This document shows positions 18,585 to 32,288 of a stretch of 33,653 nucleotides of DNA, piece by piece. The stretch covers positions 1-33,653 of the forward strand of contig CAYNUV010000001.1 of assembly GCA_964400245.1 (NCBI GenBank), written 5' to 3'. Numbering within the stretch: position 1 is the stretch's first letter; every line of letters starts with the position of its first letter. The notes beneath the pieces were generated by a model. The model ran no database searches and was not told the origin of the DNA. It worked only from the letters and a program-made list of their open reading frames with translations. The translations under genes were made by a program, and so were the position numbers. Source of the stretch: an uncultured Ignavibacteriaceae bacterium (GTDB taxonomy: Bacteria; Bacteroidota; Ignavibacteria; Ignavibacteriales; Ignavibacteriaceae).

Positions 18585-19265
18585 ATGAAAAAGAATTTGT
18601 TATTAACAGGTTTAATTATTTTCTTAAGCAGCATAACCGGGTATAGCTGTAAAGAAGTAAAATCAATTAATTTAGAAAGTGAGAAAAGTGAAATGGATTC
18701 GGTTCAAAATTCAAACCTTGAGAAAGCAACTTTTGGCAGCGGCTGTTTCTGGTGTACGGAAGCAATTTATGAAAGAGTTGAAGGAGTGCATTCTGTAGTT
18801 TCAGGATATGCCGGGGGATCAGTAAAAAATCCTGCATATAAAGAGGTTTGCGATGGAACAACCGGGCATGCTGAAGTAATACAGATTGGTTATGATCCGA
18901 AAGTTGTTTCATACGATGAACTTCTTGAAATATTCTTTAAAACTCATGACCCAACTACTTTAAACAGGCAGGGCGCCGATGTTGGAACACAGTATCGTTC
19001 AGTAATTTTTTATAACGATGATGAACAGAAAAAGAAAGCTGAATATTATAAAACAGAGCTTGATAAATCAGGTGCGTGGGATAACCCGATTGTAACAGAG
19101 ATTTCGCCGCTTACAAATTTTTATCCTGCAGAAGATTATCACCAGGATTATTATGAAAATAATCCTAACCAGGGATACTGTTCATTTGTAATTGGTCCTA
19201 AGGTAGAAAAATTTGAAAAGGTGTTTAAGAATAAATTAAAAATGAAATATTCTGAACAGCATTAA
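18585..19265 (+). CDS. msrA: Peptide-methionine (S)-S-oxide reductase MsrA, exported form
   Basis: Active-site GSGCFWCTEA plus HAEVIQIGYDP and GTQYRSVIF motifs. The N-terminal signal peptide ends ...ITGYSC. Confidence 0.9.
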   Translation: MKKNLLLTGLIIFLSSITGYSCKEVKSINLESEKSEMDSVQNSNLEKATFGSGCFWCTEAIYERVEGVHSVVSGYAGGSVKNPAYKEVCDGTTGHAEVIQIGYDPKVVSYDELLEIFFKTHDPTTLNRQGADVGTQYRSVIFYNDDEQKKKAEYYKTELDKSGAWDNPIVTEISPLTNFYPAEDYHQDYYENNPNQGYCSFVIGPKVEKFEKVFKNKLKMKYSEQH

Positions 19266-22028: not shown

Positions 22029-22463
22029 TTATTTCTCAATTTTAAAAGAATATTTAATAGAAGCCGATTTATTTAAGATTGCAGCTGCCGAGCAATATTT
22101 ATCAACAGACAGCCCGATAGCTCTCTTAACTTTTCTTTCATCAAGATCTCCTTTTAAGCTGAAATGAATTTTTATCTCTTCAAAAAGGGATGGAATTTTA
22201 TCAGCCTCACGTTCCCCGTCAACAGAGACATTAAACTCTTGTATTTCCTGCTTTTGTTTTTTTAATATTTGAATTATATCAATTGAGCTGCAGGCACCTA
22301 AGCTCATAAGCATTAATTCCATCGGCCTTGCCCCTGCGTTTTGTCCGCCAATTGATTCAGCAGCATCAATATTAACTTCAACTCCTGCAGAACCTACAGC
22401 TTTAAAGTGGAAATTATCATTGACTCTTTTTAATTCTACTTTCATATAATTGTTTATTTGCAT
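22029..22463 (-). CDS. OsmC/Ohr-family protein
   Basis: 144 aa with the OsmC-fold pattern (ELMLMSLGACSSIDIIQILKK...KYCSAAAIL) and two conserved Cys. Last gene of the sulfur operon. Confidence 0.75.
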   Translation of the reverse strand: MQINNYMKVELKRVNDNFHFKAVGSAGVEVNIDAAESIGGQNAGARPMELMLMSLGACSSIDIIQILKKQKQEIQEFNVSVDGEREADKIPSLFEEIKIHFSLKGDLDERKVKRAIGLSVDKYCSAAAILNKSASIKYSFKIEK

Positions 22464-22503: not shown

Positions 22504-23760
22504 CTAACCTATCATCCCGGCACCTGCGGTAGTATTGCTATGTTCATCAATCAAAATAAAATTACCATTTGCCCTGTTCTTTTTATACTCATCGTAACTT
22601 AAAGGATTGGCGGTTTTTATTCTTACTTTACAAATATCATTAAGATTAATTGTATCCGAATTTTTTATCTCTTCAAGTGAATTTACATCAATTTTATGAA
22701 TTATCTCTTTAACTACGCACTTTAAAATGCTGCTGTTATGCCGAAGAAGATATTTATTCCCTACGACTAATGGTTTTGTATCCATCCAGCAGACAACAGC
22801 TTCAATATCACTGCTTACTTTCGGGAGATTATCTTCTTTTACAATTACGTCGCCACGCTGAATATCCAGTTCATCATTTAAATGGATAACAACAGACATT
22901 GGTGCAAAGGCTTCTTCAACTTCATTCCCAAACATTTCAATATTTTTTATTGCTGATCCAAATCCTGAAGGAAAGCTGATAACCTTATCACCTTTTTTGA
23001 AAACGCCGCTTATAATTTTCCCTGCATAACCTCTGTAGTTATATGGCTCACCATTCCGTGGGCGAATAACCCATTGCACAGGGAATCTCGAATCTAAATT
23101 ATGATGCGAATTAATATGAATTTCTTCAAGATGATTTAATAAACTTTTTCCTTCATACCAGAACATCCTTTCAGATTTTTCAACTACATTATCGCCAAGT
23201 TTAGCGCTTACAGGAATGTATTGAATCTCTTTAAATGTAAGTTTAGCTGCAAATTTTCTGAAATCATTTATGATGTTCTCAAAAATTTCTTCCGAATAAT
23301 CAACAAGATCCATCTTGTTAACACATATAACCAAGCGAGGAATATCTAAAAGGGAAGCGATGATTGAATGTCTCTTTGTCTGTTCATTAATTCCTTTTGT
23401 TGCATCAATTAAAATAATTACGAGATCAGAATTTGATGCGCCGGTTACCATATTGCGGGTGTATTGAAAATGCCCGGGTGTATCTGCTATAATAAATTTT
23501 CTTTTCTCAGTATTAAAATATTTATAAGCCACATCAATTGTGATTCCCTGTTCCCGTTCGGCTCGTAAGCCGTCAGTGAGAAATGCAAGATTAATTCCAT
23601 TGGTGTGAGAGAAGTCTTCCCCATTATCATTATTCTTTGAGTGCTTGACAGCTTCAAACTGATCGGTTAATACAGATTTACTATCATACAATAATCTGCC
23701 TATTAAAGTACTTTTGCCGTCATCAACACTTCCTGCAGCAATAAATTTCAGTATGTCCAT
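22504..23760 (-). CDS. cysN: Sulfate adenylyltransferase subunit 1 (GTPase CysN), no fused APS-kinase domain
   Basis: G1 GSVDDGKSTLIGRLL, G3 DTPGH, G4 NKMD. 418 aa, so no CysC domain. Starts 2 nt after cysD. Confidence 0.9.
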   Translation of the reverse strand: MDILKFIAAGSVDDGKSTLIGRLLYDSKSVLTDQFEAVKHSKNNDNGEDFSHTNGINLAFLTDGLRAEREQGITIDVAYKYFNTEKRKFIIADTPGHFQYTRNMVTGASNSDLVIILIDATKGINEQTKRHSIIASLLDIPRLVICVNKMDLVDYSEEIFENIINDFRKFAAKLTFKEIQYIPVSAKLGDNVVEKSERMFWYEGKSLLNHLEEIHINSHHNLDSRFPVQWVIRPRNGEPYNYRGYAGKIISGVFKKGDKVISFPSGFGSAIKNIEMFGNEVEEAFAPMSVVIHLNDELDIQRGDVIVKEDNLPKVSSDIEAVVCWMDTKPLVVGNKYLLRHNSSILKCVVKEIIHKIDVNSLEEIKNSDTINLNDICKVRIKTANPLSYDEYKKNRANGNFILIDEHSNTTAGAGMIG

Positions 23761-23762
23761 AA

Positions 23763-24671
23763 TCAGAAATATCCCACCGCTTTTCTGTCTTCCATCGCTG
23801 ATTCGGATGTAAAATCATCTAACCTGGTTTCTCCTCTTTCACTGGTTCTGGAATTTTTTATTTCTTTTATGATATCTTCCACAGTTACTGCATCCGATTC
23901 AATTGCAGCAGTACAAGTCATATCACCTACTGTTCTAAATCTTACTTTTTTATTAACTATAATGTCCTTGTGATCGCGATAAATAAAATAGGAGAGAGCC
24001 AAAAGTTTTTCATCTCTTAAAATGCAATCTCTTTTGTGAGCGAAATAAATCTGTGGAATTTCAATGTTTTCTCTTTTGATATAATTCCACACATCTGATT
24101 CTGTCCAGTTACTTATAGGGAAAACCCTCACATTCTCTCCATAATTAATTTTTCCGTTAAATATATTCCACAGTTCCGGTCTTTGCATCTTTGGATTCCA
24201 TTGGCCGAATTCATCTCTTATCGAAAAAACTCTTTCCTTTGCCCTGGCTTTTTCTTCATCTCTTCTTGCGCCGCCTATGCACACATCAAATTTAAATTCT
24301 CCAATTGTATCCAGCAGGGTATATGTCTGAAGAGAATTCCTGCTTGCATATTTACCTTTAGATTCGGTTAATCCTCTTTGCCTGATTGTATCTTCAACAT
24401 ATCTTACTATAAGTTTTTCGTTTAGATTAGAAACCAATTTATCCCTGAACTCTATGGTTTCAGGAAAGTTATGTCCTGTATCAATATGTACTAAAGTAAA
24501 AGGAAATTTACCAGGACGGAATGCCTTCTCTGCAAGACGAACTAAAGTAATTGAATCTTTACCTCCAGAGAATAGAAGTGCCGGACGCTCAAATTGCCCT
24601 GCAACCTCACGTAAAATATGAATTGATTCTGACTCAAGTTTATCGAGATAGTTTAAAATATATTTCGCCAT
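23763..24671 (-). CDS. cysD: Sulfate adenylyltransferase subunit 2 CysD
   Basis: PAPS-reductase/ATP-PPase fold LLFSGGKDS, followed by typical CysD sequence to the C-terminus (...MEDRKAVGYF). Confidence 0.92.
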   Translation of the reverse strand: MAKYILNYLDKLESESIHILREVAGQFERPALLFSGGKDSITLVRLAEKAFRPGKFPFTLVHIDTGHNFPETIEFRDKLVSNLNEKLIVRYVEDTIRQRGLTESKGKYASRNSLQTYTLLDTIGEFKFDVCIGGARRDEEKARAKERVFSIRDEFGQWNPKMQRPELWNIFNGKINYGENVRVFPISNWTESDVWNYIKRENIEIPQIYFAHKRDCILRDEKLLALSYFIYRDHKDIIVNKKVRFRTVGDMTCTAAIESDAVTVEDIIKEIKNSRTSERGETRLDDFTSESAMEDRKAVGYF

Positions 24672-24720
24672 AATTTTATTCTGAATTTATTTGTAATAAG
24701 TTAATGTCAATTAATAAGGC

Positions 24721-25458
24721 TTACTCTTGATCCTGTACTTGAATTTGCACTTGCTCTTTTAATATATGCAAGCCGCATTCTTTTTTTGAATTATCTTCCC
24801 ACCACCATCTGCCTGCTCTGAAATCCTCGTCTTCTTGTACTGCACGAGTGCAAGGTGAGCATCCAATGCTTACAAATCCTTTATCGTGTAAAAGATTGTA
24901 CGGAACATTATGGTTGCTGATAAAGTCTTTTACTTCCTGTGTATTCCAATTAAGCAAAGGATGAAATTTGAAAAGCTTGTGAGATTCATCCCACTCAAAC
25001 TGTTCCATTACTTTCCTGTTATCTGAATGTTCTGCCCGGATACCTGTAACCCAGCATTCCATTCCTTTTAAAGCCCGGTTCAATGGTTCAACCTTCCTTA
25101 TAAAGCAGCATTCTTTTCTGTTTTCAACAGACTCATAAAAACTAAACGGTCCTTTTTCATTAACAAGCTTTTCCACTTTTTTATTTTCCGGAAAGTATAT
25201 CCGGATTTTCTTGTCATAAAATTCATTTGTTTTATTTAGAACTGAATATGTTTCATTAAATAATCTACCTGTATCTAAAGTGAAAATTTGTATTGGTAAA
25301 TCATTTGAAAAAATAATATGAGTAATTGCCTGGTCTTCTAAACCAAGACTTGTTGAAAATACTATCTTACCTCTGAATTTTTCAGAGAGAATCTTTAAAG
25401 ATTCTTCAATAGGTTTCCCATCAATAAAACTTCTTAACTCATTTAAATTTTTTATCAT
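24721..25458 (-). CDS. cysH: Assimilatory adenylyl-sulfate (APS)/PAPS reductase CysH, Fe-S-cluster type
   Basis: KECCFIRKVEPL and SIGCSPCT (the CC...CxxC cluster ligands of APS-type reductases) plus the C-terminal catalytic KECGLH. Confidence 0.88.
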   Translation of the reverse strand: MIKNLNELRSFIDGKPIEESLKILSEKFRGKIVFSTSLGLEDQAITHIIFSNDLPIQIFTLDTGRLFNETYSVLNKTNEFYDKKIRIYFPENKKVEKLVNEKGPFSFYESVENRKECCFIRKVEPLNRALKGMECWVTGIRAEHSDNRKVMEQFEWDESHKLFKFHPLLNWNTQEVKDFISNHNVPYNLLHDKGFVSIGCSPCTRAVQEDEDFRAGRWWWEDNSKKECGLHILKEQVQIQVQDQE

Positions 25459-25467
25459 TTCTACTTT

Positions 25468-26649
25468 TTAAAAACCTTTTTCTTTTGATTTCTCTAAAGC
25501 CTGTTCAACATCATCAATTATATCTTTTATATCTTCCAGTCCGACAGATATGCGGATTAAGCCGGGAGTAATTCCAATTGCATTTCTTTCCTTCTCAGTA
25601 AGCTTGGAATGTGTTGTTGATGAAGGATGCGTAACTGTAGTTCTTGTATCTCCGAGATTAGCAGTTCTTGAAAGAATATTCAGAGAATCAATAAATTTTT
25701 TTGCTCCTTCATATCCCCCCTTAACTGAAAAAGTAACAATTCCTCCTCCGAGCTTCATCTGCTTCTTTGCTAACTGATATTGAGGATGAGTAGGAAGAAA
25801 AGGATATTTCAAGAATTCAAGTTCATCATTTTCTTTAAAATATTCTGCAAAGATCAAAGCATTGGCGGAATGTTTTTCCATTCTGACTGAAAGTGTTTCA
25901 AGACTTTTTGAAAGCACCCAAGCATTAAAAGGGGAAAGAGCCGGTCCCGTTTGTCTTGCAAAGAACTGGATTTCCATTGCAAGTTCTTTTTTCCCAACAA
26001 TTACTCCACCCAAAACTCTGCCTTGCCCATCTATAAATTTTGTTGCAGAATGAGTTATAAGATCGGCACCATAATCAATTGGAGTCTGTAGTATTGGTGT
26101 TGCAAAACAATTATCTACATTTAAAATAAGATTGTATTTACTCTTCAGTTCACCAAGCCATTCAAGATCAATCAGCTCAAGACCAGGATTGGATGGAGTT
26201 TCAACGAAAATCATTCTTGTATTTTTATTTATAGCTTTCTCCCACTCTTCTGGTTTCTCGGCATCAACATAAGTGTGAGAGATACCCCACTTGGGTAAAA
26301 TTTTTGTTAAAAGCTGGTGAGTAGATCCAAACAAACATCTTGATGCAATTATATGATCTCCTGATTTGAGCAAAGCAGCAAATCCTGCAAACACAGCAGC
26401 CATACCTGTTGCAAATGCTACACCCGCTTCAGCCTTTTCAAGTGAGCACATCTTTTCAATAAATTCCGAAACATTCGGATTTGAAAAGCGTGAATAAATA
26501 TTTCCTTCAATTTCATCTGCAAATAATGCTCTTCCTTGCTCTGTATCTTCAAATACAAAACTGGATGTTAAATACAGAGGAACAGAGTGCTCTCTATGCT
26601 TGGATTTTTCTGCCTGAATCCGGATTGAGTTAGTTTCTTCTTTACTCAT
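25468..26649 (-). CDS. PLP-dependent O-succinyl/O-acetylhomoserine sulfhydrylase (MetZ/MetY family)
   Basis: Cys/Met-metabolism PLP family: YSRFSNPNV, GMAAV, and the PLP-lysine context HSATKFIDGQG. The 393-aa length and N-terminus are MetZ-like. Confidence 0.82.
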   Translation of the reverse strand: MSKEETNSIRIQAEKSKHREHSVPLYLTSSFVFEDTEQGRALFADEIEGNIYSRFSNPNVSEFIEKMCSLEKAEAGVAFATGMAAVFAGFAALLKSGDHIIASRCLFGSTHQLLTKILPKWGISHTYVDAEKPEEWEKAINKNTRMIFVETPSNPGLELIDLEWLGELKSKYNLILNVDNCFATPILQTPIDYGADLITHSATKFIDGQGRVLGGVIVGKKELAMEIQFFARQTGPALSPFNAWVLSKSLETLSVRMEKHSANALIFAEYFKENDELEFLKYPFLPTHPQYQLAKKQMKLGGGIVTFSVKGGYEGAKKFIDSLNILSRTANLGDTRTTVTHPSSTTHSKLTEKERNAIGITPGLIRISVGLEDIKDIIDDVEQALEKSKEKGF

Positions 26650-26651
26650 AA

Positions 26652-28190
26652 TTAAACAAAAAATGTATAAATGATTTTTAGACTAATAAATATTACCAGT
26701 ACACCAACTAATATCATCATTGTTCTTACGGGAAGTTTGCCTGCTGTTTTAGCTGCAATTGGTGCGGCTATCACTCCACCGATCACCAAACCTATTATTA
26801 ACTGATAGTATGAGAGCCCTATAAAAGTTATAAAAGCTGCCGAGCTGGCAAGTGCAACAAAAAATTCCGCAAGATTTACAGAACCAATTGTTATTAATGG
26901 ATTTTTCCCTTTTGCAATAAGAGTTGAAGAGACTATTGGTCCCCAGCCTCCACCGCCAACTGAATCAAAGAATCCTCCAAAACCGGCAAGGGGAGCTATA
27001 TATTTTATTTTTCCATTCCCCTTTCTTTCTTTGAATGCCTTGCGAAGAATCACTATTCCTAAAATTAAGGTGTAAGTAGCAATTAAAGGTTTAATTATAA
27101 AATTGTATTCTGAAAGTGATGACAGTGCATAAGCACCAATTACAGCCCCTAATATACCTGGAAGAAGGAGATTCTTAAAAAGTTTTATGCTTACATTACC
27201 AAACTTTAAATGAAATAAACCTGAAGCACCGCAAGTGAATATTTCCGAAGTATGAACACTTGCACTTGCTGCCGCTGGTGGAATACCAAGAGCCAACAGG
27301 AAAGATGTTGCACTTACTCCATAAGCCATTCCTAAAGCACCATCTATTATTTGTGCAATAAAACCTGCCAGTATAAACCATGGCAGTTGTTTATCGGCGG
27401 ATGAGATTAATTCACCTGGTAAATTTATTAATGATTCAAAAGAGATTCCATTAAAAGCAAACTGAAATAAAAAATGCCCGGCAATCATTGTAAGCATAAC
27501 TGCCAGAGCAATAAGAAAGTAACGGGTTAGTTTTGGTTTTTGTTTTTTTAGTTGAAGGTCTTCAACCAAAACAGATGTAATTGAGTTGAGAGTTTTTACT
27601 TTTTCTGAAAAGTTTCCATTTATCCTGTTTCTTATTTTAACAAGATTATCGAGAACATTTTCCATTTCATCCGGTATTGCATCGCTAAAAATTTCTCTTA
27701 ATCTTTTTGCAATAGTAGGAGATTTGCCGTTTGTAGATATGGCAAGCTTAATGCTTCCTTTCTGTACAACAGCGCCAAGATAAAAATCACACAGCTCGGG
27801 AGTATCTGCAACATTTACAAGGATGCCTTTTCTTTTTGCTTCTTTCCTGATAAATGAATTTAATTCTTTATCATTAGTTGCAGAAATAATGATGTCTTTG
27901 TTTTCTAAATCTTCAATGTCAAAAGTTTTATTAATTAACTCAACATTTGGATTTTGTTTTGCTAATGAAAAAATTTTCTCTCTGATTAATGGAGCTATCA
28001 AAGTAACATTTGCATCGGGACTGTTATTCAGCAGAGCAGAAAGTTTTTCATATCCAACCGAACCACCGCCGATAATTAAAGTGTTGAGGTTTTCCAACTT
28101 TAAAAAAATTGGAAAAAGTTTGTTTTCCTGTCTACCGGAAAGATTAACAGATTTTATTCTTTTATCTATTTCTGTTTCTTCTATTATCAT
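26652..28190 (-). CDS. Fusion protein: precorrin-2 dehydrogenase/sirohydrochlorin ferrochelatase (SirC/CysG-N/Met8-like) + TSUP (TauE/SafE, DUF81) membrane transporter
   Basis: About aa 1-205: FPIFLKLENLNTLIIGGGSVGYEKL (NAD site) and VNVADTPELCDFYLGAVVQKGSIKLAISTNGKSPTIAKRLR. About aa 222-512: 8 or so TM helices with the TSUP motifs DGALGMAYGV and GGFFDSVGGGGWGPIV. One continuous frame. Confidence 0.75.
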   Translation of the reverse strand: MIIEETEIDKRIKSVNLSGRQENKLFPIFLKLENLNTLIIGGGSVGYEKLSALLNNSPDANVTLIAPLIREKIFSLAKQNPNVELINKTFDIEDLENKDIIISATNDKELNSFIRKEAKRKGILVNVADTPELCDFYLGAVVQKGSIKLAISTNGKSPTIAKRLREIFSDAIPDEMENVLDNLVKIRNRINGNFSEKVKTLNSITSVLVEDLQLKKQKPKLTRYFLIALAVMLTMIAGHFLFQFAFNGISFESLINLPGELISSADKQLPWFILAGFIAQIIDGALGMAYGVSATSFLLALGIPPAAASASVHTSEIFTCGASGLFHLKFGNVSIKLFKNLLLPGILGAVIGAYALSSLSEYNFIIKPLIATYTLILGIVILRKAFKERKGNGKIKYIAPLAGFGGFFDSVGGGGWGPIVSSTLIAKGKNPLITIGSVNLAEFFVALASSAAFITFIGLSYYQLIIGLVIGGVIAAPIAAKTAGKLPVRTMMILVGVLVIFISLKIIYTFFV

Positions 28191-28247
28191 GTTATAGTTT
28201 TTAGTTATTAAATTTTTTTCTTCTTAATCTAAGGAGTATGCTTAGGA

Positions 28248-29027
28248 TTACGAGTAAGCCTTCAAAACCGATTCTCCGTTAAAAATTTCTTCTGCATCAG
28301 GATGTAATGAAACAACTTCACCAATTACAATTATTGCCGGCGATCCTAAATTCTTTTGCTTAGCTGTTTCTAAAATATTTTCAACCCGGGCAATTCCAAT
28401 TTTCTCATCAGGTAAAGAACCGTTTTGAATTATAGCTGCAGGTGTTGCCGATTTTCCTGCATTACTAAAAACCTCAACAATTTCTTTCAGTTTTCCCATA
28501 CCCATCAGGATAACAATTGTAGCATCTGTTTGTGCGGCTTTGTAAATATCATTTGATAATTCTCCATTTGATGTTGTGCCTGTGATTACCCAGAAGCTTT
28601 CATTTATTCCTCTTTTAGTGAGTGGAATATGCTGCAATTCCGGAACTGCAATAGCGCTTGATACTCCGGGAATAATTTCTACTTGAATGTTAAAAGCTTC
28701 AGCATAAGTAAGCTCTTCATGTCCTCTTCCAAAAACAAAAGGATCACCGCCTTTTAACCTTACAACATTTCCATAAGTTAAAGCATATTCAACGATCATC
28801 CGGTTAATCTCTTCCTGAGTATAAACGTAACTGTTAGCTCTCTTCCCGACAAAAATTCTCTTAGCTTCCTTTCTTGTATGATTAAGAAGTTCGGTATTTA
28901 CCAGTGCATCATATAAAACAACATCTGCTTTGGCAAGAGCTTTTATTCCTTTTACCGTAATCAGTTCAGCATCACCGGGACCAGCACCGACTAAGGTAAG
29001 TTTCGGTTTTATATTTAGATTCTCCAT
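28248..29027 (-). CDS. cobA: Uroporphyrinogen-III C-methyltransferase (SUMT; CobA/SirA)
   Basis: LVGAGPGDAELITVKG, VVRLKGGDPFVFGRG and IPGVSSA motifs. Confidence 0.9.
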   Translation of the reverse strand: MENLNIKPKLTLVGAGPGDAELITVKGIKALAKADVVLYDALVNTELLNHTRKEAKRIFVGKRANSYVYTQEEINRMIVEYALTYGNVVRLKGGDPFVFGRGHEELTYAEAFNIQVEIIPGVSSAIAVPELQHIPLTKRGINESFWVITGTTSNGELSNDIYKAAQTDATIVILMGMGKLKEIVEVFSNAGKSATPAAIIQNGSLPDEKIGIARVENILETAKQKNLGSPAIIVIGEVVSLHPDAEEIFNGESVLKAYS

Positions 29028-29039
29028 AATAATTCCAAA

Positions 29040-31154
29040 TTAAATTTTTACATCCTGATATATTTCTTTTTCACGAAACGCTTTTGCTGATGCCAGAAAA
29101 CTCTTAGCCTGATTTAAATACTTCTCTGCAAATTCTTTTGTAGGCTCATTTTGATTTATCTGCAGAACGGTATCTTTAAAATTACTTTCAACAGAAAAAA
29201 TCAATTCGTTATTAAAGTGATCATTGAATTCATTTATAATTCCATTTTGTGTTGTAGGACTAACATCTTTAGTAAGCAGCAATGCTTTTGCAGCCCAAAC
29301 AAAGGTTGAGTAGCTATGATAGATTGAATCAGCAAAAACATTATTATCAAAAGCTTCAACTGCCCAACCTAATTTCTCTTCAGCTTCATAAAGAAGAGTT
29401 GCAACAAGATCAATTATAACTCCTGCGCATTCACCGATTCCAACTGCTGTATTAAATTCTGAAGTGCTGCCCCAGTCTATATAATCTATGGCCTGGAGTG
29501 TTGATAAATTTGTTAGTGGTTTTAATAATTGGTAAAAATAATTTTTACCCCGGCGGTCATAATAACTATTAAAGTATTCGCCTTCCAATGAATTATTCTC
29601 ATAATCATTTAGAAGTATTCTCAATGCATTCGGAACTTTCCTGCTTGGAATTTTTATCACCCTTTCAGAAAATCTTCCTTCACCATTTCCGTAAGAACCA
29701 CCCCCAAGTAATAATTGTAGAGCAGGCAAAACTTTTCCGGCAGTTTTAATTGAGCTGCCATGAAAACCAATGTTTGCAATTCCATGCTGTCCGCAGGAAT
29801 TCATGCAGCCGCTTATTTTAATTTTAATATCATTGTTGAAAATTAAATCGGGAAATTCCTCTTTCATTACTCTTTCAAGTTCAACAGAGATTGAAGTGCT
29901 GTCTGAGATTCCAAGATTGCATGTATCTGTTCCAGGGCAGGCAGTTATATCAATTGTACTGTCAAACCCGAAATCAGCCAGGTTTAATTTTTTTAATTCA
30001 TTATAAAAAAGAGGGAGAGCATCTTCCCTGATAAATTTTAATACTAATCCCTGGTTCACTGTTATTCTTATATCATCTGCGGCATAAGCCATTACAATTG
30101 GAGCTAATTTTCTTACTGTTTCAGAACTCAGGTTGCCGAGAAGAACTTTAACACGAATTGCATAAAATCCTTTTTGCTTCTGTTCAAATACATTTGTCTT
30201 CAGCCATTTTTGATAGTCATTGATGTCGGTGATTTCAGTATCTGGAATAATTGAATATTCAGGAAGTTCAGGTTCAGGTAAAATATTTCTATCAATCTTG
30301 TATGATTTTGATTTAAGAGCTAAACGTTCTTCCTCAACAAGTTTGATAAATTCATCGTAACCAATTTTGTTAATTAAGAATTTTAACCGTGCCCTGTTCC
30401 TGTTGGTTCTTTCGCCAAGCCTGTCAAACAAACGGACAACTCCTTCCATAAAAATAAGAAGCGAATCTTCCGGTAAAAATTCGTGAGCCAACTTTGCAAG
30501 AAATGGTTGTGCACCAAGACCGCCTCCCAGGACAACTTTAAAGCCCCGCACCTCCTTACCGCTTTCATACTTTATTTTTGGGATAAGCCCGATGTCGTGT
30601 ATAAAAGCGTAAGCAGTATCATCATCACTAGATGAAAAAGCAATTTTAAATTTTCTTCCTAGTTCCTGGCAGATAGGATTTCTTAGAAAGAACATAAAAG
30701 TTTCATAAGCATAAGGAGAAACATCAAACGGTTCCTTCGGATCAATTCCTGCAATTGATGAAGCAGTTACATTCCTTACTGTATTGCCGCAGGCTTCCCT
30801 TAATGTAATGTCATCTTCTGCGAGTTTAGCCCAAAGCTCCGGAGTTTTATCAAGACTAACGAAATGAACCTGGATATCCTGCCTCGTTGTAAGATGAAGC
30901 ATACCTATTGAGTACTCGTCCGAAATGTCTGCTATTTTCAAAAACTGTTTTGTGGTGAGTTTACCAAAAGGAAGTTTAATCCTTACCATCTGAACACCGA
31001 ACTGACGCTGTCCATACACACCTCTGACTAAACGTAAGCTTCTGAATTTCTCGTCATCTATTTTACCATCGCGGTAAAGTTTAATTTTTTTCTCAAGGTC
31101 AATTATTTCTTTTTGAACGACCGGGTTTTCTAATTCAGTTCTAAAGCTTAACAT
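29040..31154 (-). CDS. sir: Assimilatory sulfite reductase hemoprotein (ferredoxin-type nitrite/sulfite reductase family) with a roughly 150-aa C-terminal extension
   Basis: Siroheme/4Fe-4S ligand motifs ACPGTDTCNLG and SGCMNSCGQHG, a duplicated NIR_SIR ferredoxin-like half, and first position in an operon with siroheme and cysHDN genes. Confidence 0.88.
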   Translation of the reverse strand: MLSFRTELENPVVQKEIIDLEKKIKLYRDGKIDDEKFRSLRLVRGVYGQRQFGVQMVRIKLPFGKLTTKQFLKIADISDEYSIGMLHLTTRQDIQVHFVSLDKTPELWAKLAEDDITLREACGNTVRNVTASSIAGIDPKEPFDVSPYAYETFMFFLRNPICQELGRKFKIAFSSSDDDTAYAFIHDIGLIPKIKYESGKEVRGFKVVLGGGLGAQPFLAKLAHEFLPEDSLLIFMEGVVRLFDRLGERTNRNRARLKFLINKIGYDEFIKLVEEERLALKSKSYKIDRNILPEPELPEYSIIPDTEITDINDYQKWLKTNVFEQKQKGFYAIRVKVLLGNLSSETVRKLAPIVMAYAADDIRITVNQGLVLKFIREDALPLFYNELKKLNLADFGFDSTIDITACPGTDTCNLGISDSTSISVELERVMKEEFPDLIFNNDIKIKISGCMNSCGQHGIANIGFHGSSIKTAGKVLPALQLLLGGGSYGNGEGRFSERVIKIPSRKVPNALRILLNDYENNSLEGEYFNSYYDRRGKNYFYQLLKPLTNLSTLQAIDYIDWGSTSEFNTAVGIGECAGVIIDLVATLLYEAEEKLGWAVEAFDNNVFADSIYHSYSTFVWAAKALLLTKDVSPTTQNGIINEFNDHFNNELIFSVESNFKDTVLQINQNEPTKEFAEKYLNQAKSFLASAKAFREKEIYQDVKI

Positions 31155-31176
31155 ATCTTTTTAATTTTTAGTTTGT

Positions 31177-31209
31177 AAAACAAAAAAGCCTTTCCGTTTG
31201 GAAAGGCTT
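31177..31209 (-). terminator. Attenuator terminator 2, immediately upstream of the sir ATG
   Basis: Minus-strand AAGCCUUUCC-aaac-GGAAAGGCUU followed by UUUUGUUUU. It ends about 22 nt before the sir start codon, so it can only act as a regulatory (leader) terminator. Confidence 0.7.
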
Positions 31210-31233
31210 GATTGATGTTTATGATAAAATGAT

Positions 31234-31305
31234 TCAATAACCATCAGGCAAGCCTTTGCAATTACACATACAACACATTATCACATTTCTGAAATTGTTA
31301 TTCAT
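31234..31305 (-). CDS. Candidate leader peptide 2 (23 aa, MNNNFRNVIMCCMCNCKGLPDGY)
   Basis: ATG preceded by AAGGAAAG. 4 Cys and 3 Met in 23 codons. Codons 17-19 (AAAGGCUUG) are complementary to the 5' arm of terminator 2. Confidence 0.6.
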   Translation of the reverse strand: MNNNFRNVIMCCMCNCKGLPDGY

Positions 31306-31327
31306 TACTTTCCTTTATTGATTTACT

Positions 31328-31365
31328 AAAAACAAAAAAGGTCTTCCAGCTTATGCTGAAAGACC
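31328..31365 (-). terminator. Attenuator terminator 1
   Basis: Minus-strand GGUCUUUCAGC-auaa-GCUGGAAGACC (one mismatch or wobble) followed by UUUUUUGUUUUU. Located between the two mini-ORFs. Confidence 0.7.
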
Positions 31366-31402
31366 TCTCTTAAACTTTATTATTTTATTTCTTAAAAGTC
31401 TT

Positions 31403-31480
31403 TCAACATATTAAATAACACATACAGCAGCACATCATTACGCTGTCTTTTGTGTTTAATATGTTTAGACTTTTTTTCAT
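31403..31480 (-). CDS. Candidate leader peptide 1 (25 aa, MKKSLNILNTKDSVMMCCCMCYLIC)
   Basis: 5 Cys and 4 Met in 25 codons. The stop-codon region UGAAAGAC is complementary to the 5' arm of terminator 1. Its 5' part (AAGUCUAAACAUAUUAAACACA) can pair with the 3' part (UGUGUUAUUUAAUAUGUUGAAAGACUU). The SD is weak. Confidence 0.55.
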   Translation of the reverse strand: MKKSLNILNTKDSVMMCCCMCYLIC

Positions 31481-31521
31481 TCGCTTAAATTATTCGATTA
31501 TCCTTGAAATATCTGAAAGAG

Positions 31522-31549
31522 AATATAGCAAATATTTGTTAGAATGCAA
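31522..31549 (-). promoter_or_regulatory. Possible sigma-70-like promoter of the sulfur operon leader
   Basis: Minus-strand TTGCAT-N16-TATATT, about 40 nt upstream of leader ORF 1. By eye only; promoter consensus in this lineage is uncertain. Confidence 0.3.
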
Positions 31550-31641
31550 GGAATTATTTAGCTTCTTATAAAGAAAAACTTTTCATGAAGAATAATTATT
31601 CACAAATTTAGTTAAGGATAAAAAATTAAAAGGAGGAATTA

Positions 31642-32288
31642 ATGAAAGTAGGGATTCTTGGTTCTGGTTTGGTTGCTCAGGCACTCGGCCTTGGTTTTAT
31701 AAAGGAAGGTTATGAAGTAAAGCTTGGTACAAGAGAGATAAATCGAAACTGAATGAACGGTTAAAAAAAGCCGACAGTAAAGCTTCATCGGGGAGTTTTG
31801 AAGAAGCCGCCAAGTTTGGTGAAGAGATTGTCCTGGCGACAAAAGGCTCTGCAGCAGAAACAGTGATTGAATCTGCCGGGAAAAATAACTTAGCTGGTAA
31901 GATTATAATTGATACGACTAACCCGATTAGTGATGAACCAATTGCTAACGGTGTTCTTCATTATTTTACTTCTCTGGAAGAATCATTAATGGAGCGTTTG
32001 CAGAAATCTGTGCCTGATGCAAAGTTTGTAAAAGCATTTAGCTGTGCAGGCAATGCATTCATGTACAAACCGCAATTCAAAGATGGAATGCCAACAATGT
32101 TTATCTGCGGCAATGATGAGAATGCAAAAAAAAGAGTGACTGATATTCTTTTATCTTTTGGATGGGAAGTTGAGGACATGGGCAAAGCTGAAGCAGCAAG
32201 AGCCATCGAGCCGTTGTGCATATTATGGTGCATAAATGGATTTCTTAAAAATGAATGGAGTCATGCATTTAAACTGTTGAAGAAATAA
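31642..32288 (+). pseudogene. NADP oxidoreductase, coenzyme-F420-dependent-type (NADPH-dependent F420 reductase-like / P5CR-like Rossmann protein), frame broken once as sequenced
   Basis: AGGAGG RBS plus ATG 31642 gives MKVGILGSGLVAQALGLGFIKEGYEVKLGTREINRN*. The frame of ORF 31863..32288 is open upstream from 31746 (KLNERLKKADSKASSGSFEEAAKFGEEIVLATKGSAAETVIESAGKNNLAGKIIIDTTNP...). Joined length is about 216 aa, typical of the family. Confidence 0.8.

Follow-up and report, generated by a model that had tools for sequence, protein, structure and literature searches.

Two serial candidate attenuators with cysteine and methionine codons upstream of a sulfate-assimilation operon in an Ignavibacteriaceae bacterium

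How a bacterium of the Ignavibacteriaceae might adjust sulfate assimilation to its supply of cysteine and methionine is the question raised by a 33,653-nucleotide (nt) stretch of DNA from an uncultured member of this family (assembly GCA_964400245.1, contig CAYNUV010000001.1, positions 1 to 33,653; "the window" denotes the whole of this stretch). On its minus strand, an operon headed by the sulfite reductase gene sir (ATG at 31154) is separated from a divergent plus-strand gene (start at 31642) by an intergenic gap of 487 nt (31155-31641). To our knowledge, no CysB- or CymR-type regulator of sulfate assimilation is known in Bacteroidota or Ignavibacteria. An earlier note, made from the sequence alone, proposed that the gap holds two homologous units, each composed of a small open reading frame (mini-ORF) with a run of Cys and Met codons and an intrinsic terminator, and that both act by leader-peptide attenuation. 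The analysis described here leads us to regard it as probable, with good confidence, that the sir leader carries two serial ribosome-mediated transcription attenuators that sense charged tRNA-Cys and probably also elongator tRNA-Met.

Anatomy of the two units upstream of sir

The elements on which this reading depends are listed below in the order of transcription, followed by the operon.

31522-31549, minus strand: candidate promoter, TTGCAT (31549 to 31544), a 16-nt spacer and TGcTATATT (31530 to 31522), about 42 nt upstream of the ORF1 AUG
31403-31480, minus strand (read from 31480 to 31403): leader ORF1, MKKSLNILNTKDSVMMCCCMCYLIC, 25 codons plus UGA, with 5 Cys and 4 Met
31454-31474, minus strand: unit 1 segment 1 (anti-antiterminator), AAAAGUCUAAACAUAUUAAAC, ORF1 codons 3-9; its partner is segment 2
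31418-31438, minus strand: unit 1 regulatory codons, AUG AUG UGC UGC UGU AUG UGU, codons 15-21, located in the loop that separates segments 1 and 2
31394-31414, minus strand: unit 1 segment 2, UUUAAUAUGUUGAAAGACUUUU; the antiterminator 5' strand (31410 to 31394) includes the ORF1 stop codon UGA (31405 to 31403)
31352-31368, minus strand: unit 1 segment 3, AGAGGUCUUUCAGCAUA, which pairs either with segment 2 (antiterminator) or with segment 4 (terminator)
31326-31372, minus strand: terminator 1, an 18-pair stem UAAGAGAGGUCUUUCAGC / GCUGGAAGACCUUUUUUG with the loop AUAA and a U run, about -25 kcal/mol
31311-31315, minus strand (read from 31315 to 31311): AAGGA, a possible Shine-Dalgarno sequence 5 nt before the ORF2 AUG; weak evidence
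31234-31305, minus strand (read from 31305 to 31234): leader ORF2, MNNNFRNVIMCCMCNCKGLPDGY, 23 codons plus UGA, with 4 Cys and 3 Met
31258-31278, minus strand: unit 2 regulatory codons, AUG UGU UGU AUG UGU AAU UGC, codons 10-16
31242-31257, minus strand: unit 2 antiterminator 5' strand, AAAGGCUUG CC UGAUG, codons 17-22 (K G L P D G)
31202-31217, minus strand: unit 2 segment 3, CAUCA AU CAAGCCUUU, overlapping the 5' arm of terminator 2
31177-31209, minus strand: terminator 2, AAGCCUUUCC / GGAAAGGCUU with the loop AAAC, then UUUUGUUUU, ending 22 nt before the sir AUG
22504-31154, minus strand: the controlled operon, comprising sir, cobA, a CysG-N/TauE fusion gene, a MetZ-like gene, cysH, cysD and cysN, assigned from NCBIfam and Pfam matches

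The strand and the gap are those named in the earlier note, and both mini-ORFs were recovered at the coordinates and with the Cys and Met counts given there, as was the AAGGA upstream of ORF2. Unit 1 has the full four-segment layout of an attenuator, with 1:2, 2:3 and 3:4 pairings, in which segments 3 and 4 read AGAGGUCUUUCAGC and GCUGGAAGACC, the latter followed by Us. Segment 1, which lies within codons 2-9 of ORF1, had been overlooked earlier; because this segment pairs with the antiterminator strand, unit 1 resembles the trp-type attenuators more closely than had been held. No conserved counterpart of segment 1 was seen in unit 2. The alternative pairings were found in both units where they had been placed, extending over 17 base pairs (bp) in unit 1 and over 9 + 5 bp in unit 2, where 31242-31257 pairs with 31217 to 31202 at -19.1 kcal/mol. 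On the plus strand, AAGCCTTT occurs at 31186 and 31250, as described earlier, and nowhere else in the window, while its complement lies at 31202 rather than 31201, a trivial correction.

The two mini-ORFs stand out from the composition of the surrounding DNA. In the 25 long ORFs of the window, Cys makes up 0.72% and Met 1.69% of residues, and against this background the binomial probability is about 9e-7 for at least 5 Cys in 25 codons and about 2e-5 for at least 4 in 23. Among the 428 mini-ORFs of the window, ORF1 and ORF2 are the only intergenic ones with a Cys run, the other six with such a run being out of frame within long genes. A terminator consensus scan, which bears out the hairpin and U run described after each mini-ORF, returned 3 terminator-like sites in the region compared with 0.5 +/- 0.8 in shuffled sequences; the minus-strand stems run from 31372 to 31333 (18 pairs) and from 31209 to 31186 (10 pairs), each with a U run behind it. 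The 371-nt leader folds with z = -5.2 relative to dinucleotide shuffles. The two units align over 169 columns with 98 identities (z = 4.5 against shuffles) and are therefore paralogues, as had been proposed.

Conservation, pairing and the predicted switch

Related loci were gathered by scanning genomes and metagenomes and through ten contig look-ups with exact proteins; the metagenome scan with the Sir protein yielded three close relatives only, and the closer ones came from the exact-protein look-ups. The closest named Sir homologues belong to Ignavibacteriales and Ignavibacteriaceae metagenome-assembled genomes (MAGs), with Bacteroidota as the next tier at 64-67% identity. The aligned set consists of the window and 12 non-redundant relatives, that is, 13 sequences and 26 units. 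Both units, in unchanged order, are present in all 12 relatives, which belong to the same Ignavibacteria clade (Sir 67-92% identical), and the mini-ORFs, the terminators and the antiterminator pairings are kept there, an outcome that the earlier note had named as a check of its proposal. The gene order of the operon is also the same in the relatives. Since the upstream neighbour differs from locus to locus (an F420 oxidoreductase, a major facilitator superfamily transporter, a peptide methionine sulfoxide reductase (PMSR), a thioredoxin or a SnoaL-like gene), the leader moves together with the operon.

The note had counted a transcription start downstream of the mini-ORFs against its proposal. 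A conserved promoter-like motif lies upstream of ORF1 and not downstream of it: by inspection, the window and 10 relatives (L001, L013, L089, L092, L093, L094, L099, L101, L103 and L105; L numbers denote surveyed loci) share TTGCAT/TTGCTT...TATATT/TATTTT at a distance of about 40-55 nt ahead of ORF1. A sigma-70 consensus scan did not flag the candidate at 31549 to 31522. The site that the promoter scan did flag, TTGAAA-16-AATAAT (31406 to 31379), was rejected; its TTGAAA is part of the conserved segment 2, and a start there would fall inside terminator 1.

Within the Cys/Met block the first and second codon positions are fixed and the third swaps between U and C (UGU/UGC), and one Cys codon has been gained or lost as a whole 3-nt insertion or deletion (indel). 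In the relatives, ORF1 keeps a KSLNILN-like N-terminus and the (M)CC(C)MCC block, in frame from a TTG start in L095 and L096, and ORF2 retains the CC(C)M block and, behind it, a tail resembling (W/R)KG(L)PDG. Outside the block the nucleotides are held and the reading frame is not: UGUUGAAAGACUUUU in segment 2 is unchanged although it is read as ...LIC* in the window and as ...MLKDF* in L092, L099 and L101, the frame having been changed by 1-nt indels upstream, and the stop codon falls within or just past the segment either way. This pattern argues that the Cys/Met block is under codon-level selection and the flanking segments under RNA-level selection. ORF2 of L092 and L094 contains, upstream of the Cys block, an inserted GC-rich palindrome (GCCTGCCT...AGGCAGG; L092:1150-1350, L094:2709-2920) that leaves the frame intact and approximately doubles the length of the ORF; the palindrome may be a small mobile hairpin element.

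Methionine is enriched beside the cysteine codons. With the initiator excluded, Met accounts for 36% (unit 1) and 26% (unit 2) of the non-Cys residues in or within 3 positions of the Cys block, and by the same measure for 15% in the Bacteroidota leaders considered below, the background being about 2%. Some of the AUGs just before the Cys run could be alternative start codons instead. Because of this enrichment, and because the operon encodes a homocysteine-forming enzyme, dual sensing of Cys and Met is plausible.

The conservation of this block also bears on the proposal that the switches are set by a trans-acting factor (a TRAP- or PyrR-type protein, a small RNA (sRNA) or a small-molecule ligand), the Cys codons being incidental, which we consider improbable. 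The hairpin sequences (GGUCUUUCA, AAGCCUUUCC) are unusually invariant, as would be expected of a binding site, but three mutually pairing segments alone already limit sequence variation; moreover, no coding feature is better conserved than the Cys/Met block, in which substitutions are synonymous, and through the frame changes the stop codon keeps its place with respect to the antiterminator strand. Neither a riboswitch-like multi-helix aptamer nor an Rfam match was seen: Rfam 15 at gathering thresholds gave no match in the window or in the 12 related loci, so that the region matches no known riboswitch or leader family, a riboswitch match having been listed in the earlier note as a possible refutation. 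The best sub-threshold match on the leader (E up to 10) was Phe_leader on unit 2, with 29.2 bits against a gathering score of 55, a score that reflects shared architecture, not membership.

Support for leader-peptide attenuation comes further from the pairings themselves, which were compared over the 13 aligned sequences with 500 shuffles per helix; these sequences share ancestry, so the shuffle statistics overstate significance. In unit 1, the 1:2 helix is paired in 88.8% of cells and has 6 pairs changed on both sides, a value reached by 0/500 shuffles, and the 3:4 helix is paired in 92% of cells with 3 both-side changes (1/500 shuffles), whereas the nearly invariant 2:3 helix, likewise paired in 92% of cells, has a single both-side change (236/500), an A-U to G-C replacement in L013. 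The same locus carries a four-way compensation, in which GAC has become GGC in segments 2 and 4 together with GUC becoming GCC in segments 1 and 3. RNAalifold, run unguided, predicted the inner 1:2 helix of unit 1 and the terminator. In unit 2, the 2:3 helix is paired in 83% of cells with 3 both-side changes, no more than in shuffles (214/500), and the 3:4 helix in 92% with one (36/500 shuffles). The covariation anticipated earlier for the antiterminator pairs was thus encountered in the 1:2 and 3:4 helices of unit 1, but the 2:3 pairings show little of it in either unit and rest mainly on conservation.

The placement of the antiterminator strand is regular. With the exception of unit 1 of L001, each of the 26 units has the best upstream complement of its terminator 5' arm directly behind the Cys codons, and in 12 of the 13 unit 1 sequences no stretch complements segment 3 better than segment 2 does. 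The strand begins 17-40 nt past the Cys run, farther than the approximately 12 nt that a ribosome shields on the 3' side of its A site. Counted from the start of the strand, the stop codon comes after 1-14 nt in unit 1 and after 13-25 nt in unit 2. With the strand following the Cys codons and lying near or over the stop codon, a stalled ribosome would leave it free and a terminating one would cover it. Compared with dinucleotide shuffles, the energy of the antiterminator duplex has a mean z of -3.3 in unit 1 and -4.8 in unit 2 (z = -4.2 for unit 2 of the window).

Folding the leader, as the note had suggested, gave a mixed outcome. The equilibrium fold of a whole unit, with the ribosome footprint set unpaired, was uninformative, as segments 1 and 2 paired around the ribosome and the terminator always won; the expected switch was obtained for the window when the ribosome was positioned and just the RNA 3' of it was folded, before segment 4 emerges. 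In this simulation, a stall at Cys16-18 of ORF1 allows the 17-bp antiterminator at -20.8 kcal/mol, predicting read-through, and a ribosome at the stop codon reduces it to -2.5 kcal/mol, so that terminator 1 forms. In unit 2, a stall at Cys11/12 yields the antiterminator at the energy given above, which is the minimum free energy structure even with segment 4 present and again predicts read-through, and with the ribosome at Cys16 or the stop codon no antiterminator is obtained (0 at the stop codon) and the terminator forms.

The proposed course of events is as follows. On an untranslated unit 1, segment 1 would pair with segment 2, segments 3 and 4 would form the terminator and transcription would stop. 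With Cys and Met plentiful, the ribosome would reach the stop codon and cover segment 2, and the terminator would form and transcription stop in this case as well. With Cys or Met scarce, a ribosome stalled on codons 15-21 would hold segments 1 and 2 apart and expose segment 2, the emerging segment 3 would be captured by it over the 17 bp, no terminator would form and RNA polymerase would continue. In unit 2, a stall at Cys11/Cys12 would leave AAAGGCUUG..UGAUG free to pair with CAUCA..CAAGCCUUU, and a ribosome that has advanced to Cys16 or to the stop codon would cover this strand and permit terminator 2. In several relatives merely 15-25 nt separate terminator 1 from the start codon of ORF2; this leaves no room for a promoter between the units, so RNA polymerase would arrive at unit 2 only by reading through terminator 1. 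The two decisions would therefore multiply, and the response should sharpen.

Translational or Rho-dependent control similar to that in mycobacteria, acting through access to the sir ribosome-binding site or through Rho sites, with the hairpins playing a minor part, appears similarly improbable. It has a precedent in mycobacterial Cys-run small ORFs (sORFs), which regulate translation without intrinsic termination (bioRxiv 10.1101/834739), and the Pontibacter leaders described below are without canonical terminators. In the clade of the window, in contrast, a strong hairpin and U run follow each leader ORF of the window and of all 12 close relatives, each unit has a positioned competing pairing, and terminator 2 stops 22 nt short of the sir AUG, with no overlap.

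Several points nonetheless weigh against the attenuator reading, in addition to the shared ancestry of the aligned sequences. The support for it is comparative and computational throughout, and from this support we infer the translation of the ORFs, the transcription start, the ribosome stalling and the response of the operon to Cys and Met. No Shine-Dalgarno sequence precedes ORF1; since a motif of this kind in any form is present in only 9 of the 26 window genes, its absence does not argue against translation. In unit 2, antiterminator and terminator have conserved sequences with almost no covariation, so that the pairing there is supported by conserved complementarity and position. In the simulation, a stall at the last Cys codon of ORF2 covers the antiterminator strand, and thus only the first Cys codons of ORF2 can signal. 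Terminators are more stable than antiterminators at equilibrium, for which reason the model presupposes that the RNA folds kinetically during transcription and that translation is tightly coupled to transcription, the latter being an assumption where Ignavibacteria are concerned. The Pontibacter leaders, finally, count on this side too.

That the mini-ORFs instead encode functional Cys-rich micropeptides (metal-binding, redox-active or precursors of ribosomally synthesized and post-translationally modified peptides), the hairpins being merely their terminators, is very unlikely. The ORFs are indeed conserved, in frame and with the Cys-rich core kept, but outside the Cys/Met block there is no conservation of protein sequence, the C-terminus being read in different frames over unchanged nucleotides, and the conserved N-terminal stretch covaries with the downstream RNA segment. 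Furthermore, the ORFs always lie directly upstream of the operon and on the same strand, tracking its 5' end, and the 22 nt from terminator 2 to sir in the window are too small for a promoter. A search of NCBIfam and Pfam with seven leader peptides, up to E = 10, gave no family match and one chance hit (E = 0.53). An additional role in trans for the terminated leader RNAs (promoter to terminator 1 or 2) as sRNAs, for which riboswitch-derived sRNAs are a precedent, is compatible with attenuation, under which abundant short transcripts would be expected when Cys suffices, and is equally far from likely.

Related leaders in Bacteroidota and known attenuation systems

A wider survey covered the region upstream of sir at 78 genome loci, mostly of Bacteroidota. 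Cys-run mini-ORFs were found on the sense strand at 24 of the 78 and on the antisense strand at 2, counts that are lower bounds for Bacteroidota, as this first filter (at least 3 Cys and an ATG start) missed leaders with a TTG start or with 1-2 Cys; under a looser filter, one is present at about 40 of the 78 loci. At loci whose cluster begins with a gene other than sir (L004, L016, L020, L022, L054), the leader fronts that gene and hence the 5' end of the operon. Weaker forms, in which one to three Cys codons are scattered, occur in some close relatives (L029, L034, L069 and L005). In 27 of 29 candidate leaders a hairpin with a U run begins 7-46 nt past the leader stop codon, and most of them have a complementary segment near that codon. 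Among the carriers of the leader are the culturable strains Pedobacter jeongneungensis JCM 17626 (L024), Rhodocytophaga aerolata KACC 12507 (L007) and Mucilaginibacter aquatilis HME9299 (L065).

A covariance model built on unit 1 matches unit 2 of the window (E = 0.04), unit 2 of the relatives and leaders of Bacteroidota, for example at L033, L054, L076, L065 and L060, with 27 matches in the right place and on the right strand against 6 elsewhere in 1.03 megabases. The peptide motif WKG/RKG, common to unit 2 and the leaders of the Bacteroidota MAGs L033, L060 and L076, is encoded by (U/A)GGAAAGGC, which is the antiterminator strand complementary to the terminator arm GCCUUUCC, and this arm of terminator 2 recurs in the Bacteroidota leaders. 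The sharing of the motif with these leaders makes unit 2 appear ancestral and unit 1 derived from it by duplication. In many Bacteroidota the same operon is preceded by a single unit of this type. Judged from these comparisons, the device is not peculiar to the window genome, and a family of such leaders is spread across Ignavibacteria and Bacteroidota.

Three Pontibacter loci (L002, L003, L008) have, about 120-520 nt upstream of sir, two tandem mini-ORFs that end in runs of the CCCCCSC or CCC type, and a canonical intrinsic terminator was not found after them. The read-out may therefore vary within the family, and the Pontibacter tandem may be an independent arrangement with another read-out, Rho-dependent or translational.

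Two further groups of loci were observed in the survey. At L039, L041, L042, L045, L080 and L019, palindromic CTATA...TATAG-like repeats lie beside the presumed promoter, less than about 100 nt upstream of sir; most of these loci are without a Cys-run leader, and L019 has one with a GTG start. The repeats could serve as operator for a protein regulator acting in place of the attenuator or alongside it. A separate subtype of single-unit leader, with the tail ...CCCK(H/S)L.AHAG(I/T)(S/Y)G.. and the terminator GAGCCUUUCCUG/CAGGAAAGGCUC, is found at L090, L091, L083, L055 and L068; it is present in metagenome contigs with partial Sir matches that are 75-78% identical to the Sir of the window (L090 and L091), in L083 (62%) and in Bacteroidota MAGs.

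The wider proposal, to which we give somewhat short of even confidence and which is offered tentatively, is that these leaders belong to an uncatalogued ancient family of leader-peptide attenuators sensing both Cys and Met that would be the principal switch of sulfate assimilation across the FCB superphylum (Ignavibacteriota, Bacteroidota), built around a shared antiterminator-terminator core, GGAAAGGC/GCCUUUCC. In one Ignavibacteria clade the attenuator would have been duplicated into a two-stage gate, the first stage being OFF by default when untranslated, owing to its 1:2 hairpin, and the second, without such a hairpin, ON by default; such a gate would be steeper and less leaky than a single attenuator. 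The mechanism, of the trp/his/thr type, is known; the amino-acid specificity, the target, the phyla and the tandem arrangement are what we regard as new.

The earlier note knew of no described Cys-codon version of leader-peptide attenuation. This holds for sulfate assimilation in Bacteroidota and Ignavibacteria, for which a limited literature search found no description of a Cys/Met attenuator (an earlier description is possible), but precedents with Cys codons exist in actinobacteria and Rhodobacterales. Cys-run leader ORFs occur upstream of actinobacterial cys operons, where no terminators were found (Seliverstov et al. 2005, PMC1262725), and the mycobacterial polycysteine sORF Ms5788A was experimentally shown to act on translation (Canestrari et al. 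2020, bioRxiv 10.1101/834739); the same source stated in 2020 that an attenuation mechanism for cysteine mediated by upstream ORFs (uORFs) was so far undescribed. In Rhodobacterales, the motif uORFC-8-2 upstream of cysS combines a two-Cys uORF with a terminator and is read by its authors as Cys-tRNA-responsive, ribosome-mediated attenuation (Brewer et al. 2021, PMC8632094). For Bacteroidota, leader-peptide attenuation has been proposed for the Bacteroid-trp motif (Weinberg et al. 2010, PMC2864571), and leaders of amino-acid operons in Flavobacterium psychrophilum have been proposed as attenuators (PMC9723704). The passages concerned in these two papers describe no Cys/Met or sulfate-assimilation leader, and the leaders that they present suggest that this superphylum uses classical attenuation despite weak Shine-Dalgarno usage.

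With the classical proteobacterial attenuators trpL, hisL, pheL, thrL, leuL and ilvL, the sir leader shares a short ORF in which codons for the end product are abundant, an intrinsic terminator that precedes the first structural gene and an exclusive antiterminator, the 5' strand of which would be masked by a terminating and not by a stalled ribosome. A 1:2 hairpin is common to these systems and unit 1 but has no conserved counterpart in unit 2, and the proposed sensing of Cys and Met parallels that of Thr/Ile by thrL and of Ile/Leu/Val by ilvL. No homology of sequence is evident, no match having reached the Rfam threshold, and the sir leader differs in its Cys and Met codons, its link to assimilatory sulfate reduction, its Ignavibacteria and Bacteroidota hosts, the position of the unit 1 regulatory codons in the 1-2 loop rather than within segment 1, and the presence of two complete units in series. 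A comparative attenuator survey by Lopatovskaya et al. in 2010 is said to cover Bacteroidetes.

The mycobacterial and actinobacterial Cys-run leaders resemble the sir leader, as read here, in having an upstream small ORF on whose Cys codons the speed of the ribosome controls sulfur or cysteine genes. The mycobacterial system is translational, with a leaderless mRNA, a Cys tract that pairs with the downstream Shine-Dalgarno sequence and no intrinsic terminator, whereas here each ORF has a canonical terminator with a competing antiterminator, and a promoter-like motif lies about 42 nt before the AUG. uORFC-8-2 likewise has conserved Cys codons in a uORF followed by a terminator stem and U run; its two Cys codons sit inside the first stem of a single unit that precedes a tRNA synthetase gene in one alphaproteobacterial order, whereas the sir leader has 4-5 Cys plus Met codons per unit, a biosynthetic operon and a tandem arrangement, in another superphylum and without detectable homology. 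Tandem T-boxes and tandem glycine or other riboswitches also place two sensing and termination modules in series, with a multiplied, sharper response. They sense uncharged tRNA or ligands directly, while here both modules are leader-peptide attenuators, and a limited literature search found no description of such attenuators in tandem.

If the reading is true, a conserved cis-acting attenuator would be the missing regulator of sulfate assimilation for a large and ecologically important group of bacteria, and cysteine, probably with methionine, would join the amino acids sensed by terminator-based leader-peptide attenuation. A natural serial pair of such attenuators would be useful for understanding how serial termination shapes response curves. 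As a covariance model, the motif could serve to annotate these leaders and to flag sulfur-regulated operons in metagenome-assembled genomes.

Operon genes and neighbours

The NCBIfam and Pfam assignments agree with the claim that the operon makes sulfide and homocysteine, its products by gene content: sir encodes a NirA-type sulfite reductase and the MetZ-like gene an O-succinylhomoserine sulfhydrylase. The Sir protein (29040-31154, minus strand) has 704 amino acids, compared with 513-595 positions in the best-matching NirA-type models. Its C-terminal part has a precomputed Pfam HEPN match, and many homologues are named 'HEPN domain-containing protein' by NCBI; this long architecture is kept across Ignavibacteria and Bacteroidota. 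The gene at 26652-28190 (minus strand) fuses the CysG N-terminal domain (precorrin-2 dehydrogenase/ferrochelatase) to a TauE/SafE-type permease, and this fusion is conserved in the operons of the relatives. No tRNA or tmRNA genes were found within the window.

The divergent neighbour of the leader is npdG (NADPH-dependent F420-reductase-like; Pfam F420_oxidored), which is split in the window into 31642-31752 (plus strand, 36 amino acids) and 31863-32288 (plus strand, 141 amino acids). The gene is intact, with 214 amino acids, in L092, a relative that is 92% identical, and the split in the window is a frameshift, a pseudogene or an assembly error. Downstream of cysN, at the other end of the operon, lies an OsmC-like gene (22029-22463), and a PMSR gene is located at 18585-19265 (plus strand), about 3 kilobases past the operon end. 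In L094 a PMSR gene lies divergently next to the leader; the link between these sulfur-amino-acid functions is a loose one.

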